A stretch of DNA of 64,000 nt, from assembly GCA_965220805.1 (NCBI GenBank), contig OZ244844.1, positions 3,415,757 through 3,479,756 of the forward strand, written 5' to 3'. The translations under genes and the position numbers were made by a program. Shown here piece after piece: positions 988 to 3,344 of the stretch. Numbering within the stretch: the stretch's first letter is position 1; every line of letters starts with the position of its first letter. The notes below the pieces were generated by a model, which searched no databases, was not told where the DNA came from, and saw only the letters and a program-made list of their open reading frames with translations. Origin of the DNA: Alphaproteobacteria bacterium (GTDB lineage Bacteria; Pseudomonadota; Alphaproteobacteria; SP197).

Positions 988-1713
988 GTGAAAACATCGA
1001 CATATGCGACCGGGCCGGGAGGCAACGGGGCCGAGTCCCGGCTGCGTGTGCGATCTGGTAGATTCACTGCGATGACATCTGTTCGCTGGAAGGTGAGCGA
1101 CCGGCCGGTGGACTATCCGGATGCGGTGCGCTCCATGGAAGAGACGGCTGCCGGCATTCGCGCCGGCGAGGCGCCGGAGACGGTATGGCTGCTCGAACAT
1201 CCGAGCCTCTTCACGGCGGGAACGAGCGCGCGGGATGACGAACTCATCGATGCCGGAGACATTCCGGTCTACCGCACCGGGCGCGGCGGCCGCTACACAT
1301 GGCATGGTCCGGGACAGCAGGTCGCCTACGTCATGCTCGATCTCGCCCGCCGGGGACACGACCTGCATGTCTTTGTCCAAGACCTTGAAACCTGGATCAT
1401 CCGGACACTGGAGCGCTTCGGTGTGACGGGTCAATGCCGCCGGGACCGCGTCGGTATCTGGGTGGTCGACGCGTGCGGACGCGAGGACAAGATCGCGGCC
1501 ATCGGCATACGCGTGCGCCGCTGGGTGACGTATCACGGGATCAGCATCAACCGTGCCCCGGATCTCGCGCCTTATGGCCGCATCGTGCCCTGCGGCATCA
1601 GGTCTCACGGCGTGACATCCCTGGCGGCGCTCGGTATCGAGGTCGAAGGCCATACCTTGCGCACGGCCATGGAAGAGACGTTCCGCGACGTGTTTCACAA
1701 GGGACATATATAG
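988..1713 (+). CDS. lipB: lipoyl(octanoyl) transferase LipB; real start possibly the internal ATG near 1072; last 4 codons are supplied by the IS end
   Basis: Motifs LLEHPSLFTAG, RTGRGGRYTWHGPGQQVAY, GISIN; stop TAG 1711-1713 lies inside the IS terminal repeat. Confidence 0.8.
   Translation: MKTSTYATGPGGNGAESRLRVRSGRFTAMTSVRWKVSDRPVDYPDAVRSMEETAAGIRAGEAPETVWLLEHPSLFTAGTSARDDELIDAGDIPVYRTGRGGRYTWHGPGQQVAYVMLDLARRGHDLHVFVQDLETWIIRTLERFGVTGQCRRDRVGIWVVDACGREDKIAAIGIRVRRWVTYHGISINRAPDLAPYGRIVPCGIRSHGVTSLAALGIEVEGHTLRTAMEETFRDVFHKGHI
1693..1700. repeat. 8-bp direct repeat TTTCACAA flanking the IS (left copy); right copy at 3046..3053; putative target-site duplication
   Basis: Identical octamers immediately outside both terminal inverted repeats. 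Confidence 0.5.
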
Positions 1714-1880
1714 GAGAGTCACATTCATGCGGCCCACCGATCCGTTTCACGGTTCGCAGGCCCGTTCGATGCGGCAACCTCCCCGTGCAGCAGCGCCTGT
1801 CCCCGACGCCGTATGGTGCGGGCCGCGTTCAGGTCCGCATGATCCGCATGGCCGCAGGCCACGCATTCGAATGTCCTGCC
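1701..1880 (-). ncRNA. hypothetical omega/reRNA region overlapping the tnpB 3' end and right end, by analogy to IS200/IS605; not demonstrated
   Basis: Positional inference only; only 3 nt separate the tnpB stop (1725) from the terminal IR, so any scaffold must lie within the CDS. Confidence 0.2.
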
Positions 1881-2921
1881 CCGGCGCGAAGCGGCGTCAA
1901 CCGCGCCGCACGCCGCGCAGGATTGGCTCGTGAAGGCCGGATTGACAGCCACGACGCGCGGGGCCTTGTAGTCGAGCATGGCCCGCAAGCCGCCCCAGCC
2001 GGTGGCGAGAATCTCGCGGTTCAGCCCGGCTTTCGCCTTCACGTTCATCCCGGGGTGCTCGACTGTTCCCTTCGCGCTTCGCGTCATGGCCTTTGTGTTG
2101 AGATCCTCGATGACGACCGTTCCGCCCGCCAGGGCCCGGGAAACATGGTGCTGCCAGTTGCGGCGGCGCATGGCGATCCGGCGCTGCGTTCGGGCAAGCT
2201 GGCGCCGCGTCTTCTTGCGACGCCGGGAACCGCGCACCTGTCTCGCCAGCTTCTTCTGGTAGCGCCGCCTGCGGGCTTCGAGGCGGCGCGTCTTCGGTGC
2301 CTGGAACAGCCGCCCGTCCGACGCCGCCACCTGCCGCACGTTCATGTCGAGGCCGGTCACCGTACCGTCGTCGGGCCGCTCGACAGACGCCACGCTGTAG
2401 CAGACCGTGGCGTACCACTTGCCGCAGCGCTGCTTGATCACCGCCTGCACCGGCTCGCCCCCGGGGTAGGGGTTCCCTCCCCGGCAGCGAAGCCGCATCG
2501 GCCCGATCTTCGGGACGTAGAGCATGCCGTTCCGGATGCGGATGTCGTCCGGGAGCGTCACCGAGTCATCGCCTCGACGCTTGAAGCGGGGCCGTCCGGC
2601 GCGCCCGGAGAAGAACGCCTGCCAGGCATCCGCCTGGTACTTGAGAGCGTAGCGGACGGGCGCGAACGGCATCTCCTGCAACCACGGCGTCACCCTGCGA
2701 AGCCGGGTGAAGGCCTTGCCGAGCGTGAAGAACGACACGCCTGGCAGCCGGTCCGCTCCCGCCAGTCTCGCCGCTGCAACAAGCTGCTCCTGCTGGTCGA
2801 GCATGGCGTTCCAGACGAAGCGGCACGCGCCCGCGGTGGCCGCAAGCTTGCGCGCCTTCGCCCGGCTGCCGGGGAGCAACCGGTAGGTGACTTGCCGATA
2901 TTCGTGAGTATCCTGAGCCAT
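1725..2921 (-). CDS. tnpB: TnpB RNA-guided endonuclease family (IS605 OrfB), likely start MAQDTHEYRQ with GGAGGG Shine-Dalgarno; ORF track extends to 2978
   Basis: RuvC-I GLDMNV, RuvC-II VVIEDLN, zinc finger CAACG...CVACG, RuvC-III HADLNAARTI; N-terminal YRLLP...RFVWN helical domain. Confidence 0.85.
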   Translation of the reverse strand: MAQDTHEYRQVTYRLLPGSRAKARKLAATAGACRFVWNAMLDQQEQLVAAARLAGADRLPGVSFFTLGKAFTRLRRVTPWLQEMPFAPVRYALKYQADAWQAFFSGRAGRPRFKRRGDDSVTLPDDIRIRNGMLYVPKIGPMRLRCRGGNPYPGGEPVQAVIKQRCGKWYATVCYSVASVERPDDGTVTGLDMNVRQVAASDGRLFQAPKTRRLEARRRRYQKKLARQVRGSRRRKKTRRQLARTQRRIAMRRRNWQHHVSRALAGGTVVIEDLNTKAMTRSAKGTVEHPGMNVKAKAGLNREILATGWGGLRAMLDYKAPRVVAVNPAFTSQSCAACGAVDAASRRGRTFECVACGHADHADLNAARTIRRRGQALLHGEVAASNGPANRETDRWAA

Positions 2922-3023
2922 GCGCGGTCGGCCCTCCATTGGCCGTCTGGTGGGGCGGGGCAGGCGACCCCAAACCACACGCGTGTCATCCCTCGTGAAC
3001 GCCCGGAAGTCAAGGCGATCATG

Positions 3024-3045
3024 GTGACTTTCCTATATAATTCCC
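3024..3045. repeat. terminal inverted repeat of the IS, tnpB-upstream end (partner at 1701..1722)
   Basis: 19/22 match to the other end in inverted orientation. Confidence 0.6.
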
Positions 3046-3047
3046 TT

Positions 3048-3344
3048 TCACAACGTGGGTCGTTGAGCGAAACCGCACGCCACCTCTTCCGCGAACGGCT
3101 CGCACGCAACCTTCTCGACGACGGCCAGCGGCGGCCCCTGTTTCAGGAGGCCCAGCATGGTCTCGATATCCTCCTGGCTTCCGGCAAGGACCGCCTCCAC
3201 CGAACCATCGCTGCGGTTGCGGACCCAGCCGTCAAGGCCGAGATCGCGTGCTTCCTCGCGTGTCCATGCCCGGTACCACACGCCCTGTACGCGGCCGGTG
3301 ACCGTCACGTGCACCCGCCGCTCGTGACCGGGACCGGTGGTCAT
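3048..3344 (-). CDS. acyP: acylphosphatase
   Basis: VTGRVQGVWYR and GWVRNRSDGSVE signature motifs; 98 aa. Confidence 0.85.
   Translation of the reverse strand: MTTGPGHERRVHVTVTGRVQGVWYRAWTREEARDLGLDGWVRNRSDGSVEAVLAGSQEDIETMLGLLKQGPPLAVVEKVACEPFAEEVACGFAQRPTL

Follow-up and report, generated by a model that had tools for sequence, protein, structure and literature searches.

The stretch of DNA analysed here (the window, 64 kb of contig OZ244844.1 from an alphaproteobacterium) contains two convergent genes, lipB (lipoyl transferase) and acyP (acylphosphatase), which are separated by an insertion of 1345 bp. This element is bounded by 22-bp imperfect terminal inverted repeats (TIRs), identical at 19 of 22 positions, and has a single credible open reading frame (ORF), tnpB, of 398 aa, read from 2921 to 1725 on the minus strand. 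The octamer TTTCACAA adjoins both ends of the element, i.e., in the manner of an 8-bp target-site duplication (TSD). The coordinates of all features are given in Table 1.

Table 1. Features of the tnpB element and of its host genes (positions in the window; TIR, terminal inverted repeat; TSD, target-site duplication).
Feature	Position	Strand	Basis or remark
lipB, lipoyl transferase	988..1713	+	last 4 codons and stop now element-derived
Predicted guide segment, TTGTGAAACACGTCGCGGAA	1681..1700	-	made of the duplication and the 3' end of lipB; agrees with the empty lipB-acyP junction; inferred from canonical TnpB biology, scaffold position and empty site
TSD copy at right end, TTTCACAA	1693..1700	.	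single copy in empty site L081
Whole element, non-autonomous IS1595-type with tnpB	1701..3045	-	missing from empty site L081; TIR and TSD
Right-end TIR, GTGACTCTCCTATATATGTCCC on tnpB strand	1701..1722	-	presumed 3' end of guide-RNA scaffold
tnpB, 398 aa plus stop	1725..2921	-	RuvC D192/E272/D363; zinc finger C335/338/353/356
Conserved helices, presumed omega/reRNA scaffold	1748..1809	-	helix 1 1805-1809/1793-1797; helix 2 1784-1787/1748-1751; overlaps tnpB 3' end
Left subterminal region / tnpB 5' leader	2922..3023	-	sequence reading
Left-end TIR in tnpB orientation, GGGAATTATATAGGAAAGTCAC	3024..3045	-	GGGRMTTATAT... start in 60+ relatives and in IS1595 transposase elements
TSD copy at left end, TTTCACAA	3046..3053	.	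holds acyP stop codon 3048-3050
acyP, acylphosphatase, intact	3048..3344	-	stop codon within duplicated octamer
G 5' of left duplication, candidate last base of target-adjacent motif	3054..3054	-	53/55 tnpB elements vs 7/15 autonomous IS1595

An empty site proves both the boundaries of the element and its duplication. When the AcyP protein encoded next to the element was looked up by exact match, it led to a 2.8-kb metagenome contig (L081; ENA ERZ23495076 scaffold_54420) in which lipB and acyP converge without the element, with near-identical flanks. The junction reads ...GCGACGTG-TTTCACAA-CGTGGGG..., i.e., the octamer is present in one copy, in agreement with the 8-bp direct duplication claimed by the original prediction, which had been made from the letters of the window. 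The insertion point lies in the 3' overlap of the two convergent genes (window 1693-1713 and 3046-3064). The acyP gene retains its stop codon because this codon sits inside the duplicated octamer. In LipB the last four residues are changed from NVGR to KGHI, with a stop inside the repeat of the element (...FHKGHI-stop vs. ...FHNVGR-stop).

The two end sequences, GGGACATATATAGGAGAGTCAC at 1701-1722 and GGGAATTATATAGGAAAGTCAC as the reverse complement of 3024-3045, are the only sites of this repeat in the window when up to 3 mismatches are allowed in a degenerate search, and such a pair was obtained in 0 of 100 shuffles. The size of the element and the repeats originally described (19/22) thus stand. 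A local coincidence of sequence, in which both the inverted repeats and the duplication would be fortuitous, could find an argument in the shortness of the octamer (4 occurrences in the window vs. 0.82 expected). It is refuted by the shuffles, by the empty site (the uninterrupted lipB-acyP locus holds a single TTTCACAA and not two) and by the recurrence of the same architecture across the family, described below; its probability is considered as negligible.

Three Pfam domains are recognised in the protein: HTH_OrfB_IS605 (PF12323), OrfB_IS605 (PF01385) and Cas12f1-like_TNB (PF07282). Residues 13-374 align to ISDra2 TnpB (8BF8/8EXA) with an E-value of 1e-20. According to the motifs aligned to these two entries, the RuvC triad is intact, i.e., D192 (GLD), E272 (IEDL) and D363 (HADLNAA), and the zinc finger CxxC...CxxC is made of C335, C338, C353 and C356. 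Pfam and the ISDra2 alignment are therefore in agreement with the earlier description of the sole ORF as a TnpB having a RuvC D/E/D triad and a zinc finger. The distance of 3 nt originally given between the tnpB stop and the terminal repeat must be corrected: the stop codon occupies 1725-1727 and the gap is 2 nt (1723-1724). A protein of a public collection (P0001) is 100% identical to the TnpB of the window; exact look-up of the TnpB sequence of the window gave no record. When plasmids were searched by tblastn, the closest sequences (36-38% identical) were IS609-type tnpB of E. coli, a result that says nothing on the ends. BLASTN of the element against plasmids gave weak tnpB fragments at most, and the repeat pattern had no match when viral contigs were scanned. 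It must be added that residues 282-303 (SAKGTVEHPGMNVKAKAGLNRE) form an insertion located after RuvC-II which is not found in ISDra2 TnpB; an insertion of this type is also present in the best PDB match, 9j09_A, a 540-aa «Transposase» (E-value 7e-30).

A genome collection was scanned with the TnpB protein, and 80 of the 163 related loci obtained were retained. Almost all of them come from uncultured marine metagenome-assembled genomes (MAGs), namely of Alpha- and Gammaproteobacteria, Paracoccaceae, Rhodothermales and Arenicellales. Up to 15 tnpB loci were retrieved from a single genome, and the protein database contains 1072 TnpB homologues at E <= 1e-20. Repeat pairs and their flanks were scored with an end-motif pairing script. 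A recognisable repeat pair, starting with GGG(G/A)(A/C)TTATAT and often continuing through to ...TTGACA, is present in 61 related tnpB loci; the flanking 8-bp repeats are perfect in 34 of the 61 and match at 7 of 8 positions in 7 of them. The duplications of the relatives are all different and AT-rich (e.g., AATGTTTC, CAAAACTA, TTCTCATG, ATTGGAAA and TATAATTG). The closest relatives (>= 90% identity; L009, L010 and L226) likewise have the repeats and 8-bp duplications. Other copies of the element thus also bear TIRs and 8-bp duplications, and the cut-and-paste event of DDE type that had been read from the window is borne out by the variable duplications found family-wide together with the single octamer of the empty site.

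These data bear directly on another explanation, i.e., an ordinary IS200/IS605 element of the IS1341 group, transposed as single-stranded DNA by a Y1 TnpA acting in trans, the octamer being a fixed target (or target-adjacent motif) at the left end and, at the other, a similar sequence that belongs to the right end of the element itself. Pfam assigns the protein to OrfB_IS605, and a single empty site cannot, alone, tell a duplication from a target plus a look-alike end. However, a fixed target of IS605 type with a look-alike right end is excluded because the duplications vary among copies (41 sites), and the explanation is already refuted thereby. Moreover the ends are inverted repeats of 22-26 bp and not asymmetric hairpins, and the same ends are found around DDE transposase genes and around miniature elements of 190 bp. 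An ordinary IS200/IS605 element is therefore regarded as extremely improbable. Of the four characters of the IS200/IS605 family (IS1341 group), three, i.e., hairpin ends without TIR, no TSD and a fixed target, are contradicted, and the TnpB protein is the one that is found. As for the IS1595 family, ends starting with GG and an 8-bp TSD are found and the transposase gene is not, which corresponds to a non-autonomous derivative.

In the IS1595 family (ISNwi1 group), duplications of 8 bp are the rule, and the ends of the ISNwi1 group are said to follow the consensus «ggnnatTAT». No match was obtained between this consensus and the first 80 loci; real transposases were matched later, among metagenome loci. 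Metagenome contigs were scanned with GGGRMTTATATMNNTNNNTTGAC, most of the matches being due to chance. In four loci (L198, L197, L103 and L180) the repeat is directly followed by a gene encoding Zn_ribbon_IS1595 and DDE_Tnp_IS1595 (Pfam match of 4.7e-21 for the latter). Two of them, L103 and L180, have a full transposase and a left repeat, the right repeat being absent within the contig, and were not counted among the complete elements. The transposase profile gave about 8000 homologues, and IS1595 transposase genes lie inside such repeats in L198, L197, L202, L203, L205-L212, L214-L216 and L220-L224. The transposase-bearing elements are complete at 1.9-4.0 kb, with repeats of about 26 bp of the type found in tnpB elements, and all complete elements taken from the profile contexts, except L212, have perfect 8-bp AT-rich duplications. 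Examples are L202 (2197 bp, duplication AAAATTTT), L203 (2163 bp, ATAATTTG), L205-L208 (3031 bp, AAGCAATA), L209 and L210 (AATATTTT and ATTGATTG), L223 (1971 bp, GAAATAAG), L214-L216 (4038 bp, with a type I restriction-modification (R-M) cargo) and L220-L222 (2226 bp, with a SocA_Panacea cargo).

Ends of the GGGRMTTATATA...TTGACA type are common to tnpB elements and to elements encoding DDE_Tnp_IS1595 (L202, L203, L209, L214, L220 and others), as can be seen from the left ends of L202 (transposase, GGGGATTATATACTTAGTTTGACAAC) and L062 (tnpB, GGGGATTATATACTTAACTTGACACG). The same ends (GGGGCTTATATCCATGAGTTGAC...) and 8-bp duplications are found in four miniature elements of 192-193 bp (L124, L150, L169 and L178, on LXNJ contigs). 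IS1595 transposases and tnpB elements co-occur in the whole-genome shotgun projects or metagenomes LXNI, MKWU, Ga0209754 and JGI24794J26673. The hallmarks of the IS1595 family are the 8-bp TSD, a zinc finger (Zn_Tnp_IS1595) and DDE_Tnp_IS1595, its transposases being kin of eukaryotic Merlin (PMC8101967).

Further tnpB elements were also obtained from metagenome contigs (L132, L112, L146 and L155). L132 (3058-4988) and L112 (212-2113) are elements of 1.9 kb that encode longer TnpBs (528 and 627 aa), 29-42% identical to the protein of the window, and both have IS1595-type ends and 8-bp duplications. Given this divergence, the association of TnpB with IS1595 ends spans very divergent TnpB lineages. 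Two other observations were made during the comparison. Autonomous IS1595 elements with this type of ends almost always have passenger genes downstream of the transposase (L202, L203, L205-L212, L214-L216, L220-L224, L197 and L103), i.e., a type I R-M methylase with its specificity subunit, an R-M pair, SocA_Panacea or small unknown ORFs, and carrying cargo seems to be a general trait of this IS1595 clade. A recurrent sequence, GGGAATTATATAAATTTTTTGACAGA, was present among the matches of the metagenome scan, in about 40 human-gut contigs (within L082-L201); having no partner repeat, it was discarded; it probably represents a conserved region resembling a promoter, with no relation to the element.

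The transposase-bearing and miniature elements also make it possible to judge the idea that TnpB alone, without any transposase, makes the insertions, a staggered RNA-guided cleavage followed by fill-in giving rise to the 8-bp duplication. No transposase is found in or near any tnpB element, and the asymmetry observed at the target (see below) is nuclease-like, as this idea would have it. However, the same ends and 8-bp duplications belong to DDE elements devoid of TnpB and to miniature elements devoid of any gene, and TnpB cleaves 15-21 nt away from its motif, not adjacent to it. No strand-transfer activity is known for TnpB, and insertion by TnpB alone is very unlikely.

The right end of the elements has a constrained organisation. 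Among 62 elements, nearly all have the tnpB stop at a distance of 5-29 nt from the right terminus, often as the TAA contained in the TATAA of the repeat; in L060 and L080 there is no tnpB stop before the end of the element. For 26 diverse elements, the terminal 150 nt at this end were aligned and a consensus structure was calculated with RNAalifold. This consensus has 16 pairs in 4 helices, with compensatory changes in 11 of the 16 pairs (in one pair, for instance, 13 sequences have CG and the other 13 have GC). Paired cells amount to 95.9% vs. 77.8% in shuffled alignments, and the covariation score is 0.487 vs. 0.183, a value reached by 0 of 500 shuffles; when partners are slid by 1-3 columns, pairing falls to 34-49%. 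This covarying structure has the features expected of an omega/reRNA scaffold that overlaps the 3' end of tnpB and stops at the element boundary, and is consistent with a guide RNA read out across the right end. The Rfam scan of 1500-3300 gave no family.

In order to compare the targets, the insertions were oriented by tnpB and the empty sites were reconstructed. In 39 of 41 genome loci a G stands directly 5' of the left duplication. The window is one of these, with the sequence ...CACG-TTGTGAAA-GGGAATT, in which the G is the complement of window 3054. At the mirror position, after the right copy, the base is C in 20 of the 41. The G was also found in all metagenome tnpB elements (7/7), in close relatives (2/2) and in copies bearing a group II intron (5/5), i.e., 53 of 55 in total. 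Among independent insertions of autonomous IS1595 elements (n=15), 7 have G at the same position, and the four miniature elements have G or C flanks on 3 of 8 sides. With the first 48 tnpB sites, Fisher's test gave p = 6e-5 for 46/48 vs. 7/15 in autonomous elements, and p = 5e-8 for the left side (46/48) vs. the right-side mirror (22/48) of tnpB carriers. A shifted boundary or a 9-bp duplication was considered as the origin of this G and rejected, the base after the right duplication not being G: neither can explain it, since C is invariably the last base of the right end.

The simplest reading of this signature, which we hold with moderate confidence and which falls short of proof, is that the G forms the last base of a target-adjacent motif. 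When the site is empty, the G stands directly 5' of the sequence that a guide read out from the element (duplication plus right flank) would match. In the occupied site, the corresponding position at the right junction is C, and the left junction matches over 8 nt only.

It could also be that mobilisation by IS1595 is rightly deduced and that TnpB is a mere passenger, or has a role in defence or regulation, the G being a target preference of the transposase. The IS1595 clade does habitually bear unrelated cargo (type I R-M, SocA_Panacea, small ORFs), the autonomous copies have G at -1 in 7 of 15 cases, above a background of roughly 25-30%, and TnpB motifs normally have 4-5 nt. On the other hand, the G reaches 96% on the left of tnpB elements vs. 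47% in autonomous elements and 46% at the mirror position. Likewise the tnpB stop is near the right end (<= 29 nt) and the covarying RNA abuts this end down to 42% protein identity; the placement of both stop and RNA is the geometry that read-out guides need, unlike that of a random passenger. A passenger TnpB is thus regarded as unlikely.

Taken together, these results make it probable that the element is a DDE transposon of the IS1595 family without transposase, having tnpB and its guide RNA as only cargo, mobilised in trans by an IS1595 transposase and using TnpB for homing. Confidence is high for the architecture and the family of the ends and good for the mobilisation in trans, whereas the G motif and a role in homing are held with moderate confidence. 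The original prediction had proposed either a non-autonomous TIR element mobilised in trans or an insertion sequence group combining TnpB cargo with such ends; both hold and amount to the same thing.

The following mechanism can be proposed. By comparison, the repeats of 22-26 bp (GGGRMTTATATA...) and the AT-rich 8-bp TSD are those of the IS1595 clade whose transposase has a Zn-ribbon and DDE_Tnp_IS1595. Supplied from another locus in the same cell, a transposase of this kind would bind the repeats and move the element, leaving the 8-bp duplication. Transcription of tnpB would begin at the left end. The RNA scaffold, whose structure is conserved, would be made of the final ~150 nt of the gene together with the right repeat, and read-through into the flank would provide each copy with a guide that matches the site of its own insertion, i.e., the duplication and the right flank. 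As the statistical signature suggests, the TnpB-RNA complex would then cut the unoccupied site, where G is directly 5' of the guide match, and would spare the occupied site, where the repeat end has a C at this position. An occupied copy would then serve as repair template, by which the element is restored or spread, as in the homing of IS605/IS607 TnpB and Fanzor.

Several observations weigh against this explanation, taken as a whole or in its parts. No IS1595 transposase is found in the 64-kb window nor in ~100 tnpB loci; it is because of these ~100 loci that the tnpB elements are considered as non-autonomous and presumably mobilised in trans. The repeats of tnpB elements and of transposase-bearing elements are similar (about 16-22 of 26 positions) and not identical. 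Concerning the RNA, the inner consensus hairpin is misaligned, weaker or poorly formed in the copy of the window, and single-sequence folding of the tail of the window copy is no better than that of shuffled sequences (z = 0.73). The promoter and terminator scan found no sigma-70 consensus promoter in the tnpB 5' leader, and no terminator either. A motif of one base is unusually short for TnpB. As autonomous copies prefer G at 47%, part of the signal may be that of the transposase. Finally, in Fanzor the duplication is reportedly a part of the scaffold and not of the guide (PMC10711439), in which case the motif would lie elsewhere.

The element can be compared with several known systems. With the IS1595 family (ISNwi1-like group, passenger forms included) it shares GG(G)..ATTAT TIRs, the AT-rich 8-bp TSD and the similarity of the ends. 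It differs from it by the lack of transposase, by a cargo that is an RNA-guided nuclease, by the scaffold fused to the right repeat and by the one-sided G. The resemblance to the IS1341 group of IS200/IS605 concerns the TnpB family, the domain order and the scaffold that overlaps the 3' end of the gene up to the element boundary, whereas the inverted repeats, the TSD, the lack of a fixed tetra- or pentanucleotide target and the non-hairpin ends are foreign to that group. Mobile insertion cassettes and miniature inverted-repeat transposable elements (MITEs) also consist of insertion sequence ends around DNA without transposase and are moved in trans, and L124, L150, L169 and L178 are true MITEs; unlike theirs, the cargo of the present element is probably not neutral and probably favours the persistence of the element.

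Association of TnpB with DDE transposases and inverted repeats is already published (Altae-Tran et al. 2023, PNAS, PMC10691335). The main text of that study describes six DDE-associated TnpB branches (DDE-1 to DDE-6), all with inverted terminal repeats (ITRs), as well as solo tnpB copies whose ends are like those of transposase-bearing systems. As they are described there, these branches and the present family have in common a prokaryotic tnpB bounded by ITRs, a 3' end of tnpB near the transposon end and an implied mobilisation in trans; the difference, in the same terms, is that no element of the present family combines tnpB with the transposase. The DDE transposases named in the text of Altae-Tran et al. 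2023 or in that of a 2026 review (PMC13565253) are IS630, ISL2 and IS1031, and IS1595 is not mentioned in the main text of the former. In the literature searched, neither a link of TnpB to IS1595/ISNwi1, nor an IS1341 element with inverted repeats, nor anything relevant on TnpB in sponge symbionts, nor the G signature was found. What is new is the assignment to the IS1595 family, together with the extent of the clade and the G found on one side.

The closest functional analogue is Fanzor1 of eukaryotic viruses. In Fanzor1/Fanzor2* elements of eukaryotes and of their viruses (Bao & Jurka 2013; Yoon et al. 2023, PMC10711439), too, a TnpB-type nuclease is the sole gene of a non-autonomous cut-and-paste element with TIRs and TSDs, and the TIR is part of the guide-RNA scaffold (PMC10711439). 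Unlike Fanzor, the present element is bacterial and its candidate motif lies 5' of the duplication, while Fanzor RNAs are described as including the duplication in the scaffold. The 8-bp duplication of the present family is variable and therefore cannot itself be a fixed motif.

TnpB is thought to benefit transposons by restoring them after scarless excision by Y1 or serine transposases. The association of DDE transposases with TnpB has been considered as rare in prokaryotes since cut-and-paste transposition already leaves a break (2026 review, PMC13565253). With a widespread family of elements that have IS1595 ends and tnpB as only gene, a scaffold fused to the repeat and a one-sided signature, the use of the nuclease to a DDE transposon becomes testable in bacteria. 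Besides, the clade supplies compact nucleases (~400 aa), possibly with a minimal target-adjacent motif, and its members are mislabelled when tnpB-only elements are assigned to IS200/IS605 without exception. A broader proposal, advanced tentatively and with slightly less than even confidence, is that a large bacterial clade of TnpB has co-evolved with IS1595 as transposase-less riders, the scaffold being fused to the transposase-binding repeat and the nuclease filtering the surviving sites via a minimal «...G» motif. If true, it would represent a prokaryotic Fanzor lifestyle and provide population-level evidence that TnpB homing shapes the sites where DDE transposons persist.

Finally, some tnpB elements are themselves invaded. 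A 2-kb segment upstream of several Paracoccaceae copies was taken as a transposase candidate and proved to be a group II intron. This intron, of ~2.03 kb, is located at ~775-2801 of L014 (Paracoccaceae MAG OY759767.1), is identical in L017, L018, L020 and L021, and is truncated in L015. Its reverse transcriptase (RVT_1 and GIIM, 446 aa) is encoded on the strand opposite to tnpB. The intron is placed 1-2 nt within the left terminal repeat in at least 5 tnpB elements, each at its own site with its own 8-bp duplication, so that the conserved repeat seems to be the homing site of the intron, which probably immobilises the tnpB copies that host it. In L068 (4245-6045), a DDE_Tnp_1-like transposase of 478 aa is nested between the tnpB stop and the right repeat, and in L225 (from about 3705) an element of the IS110 family splits the right repeat of the tnpB element.

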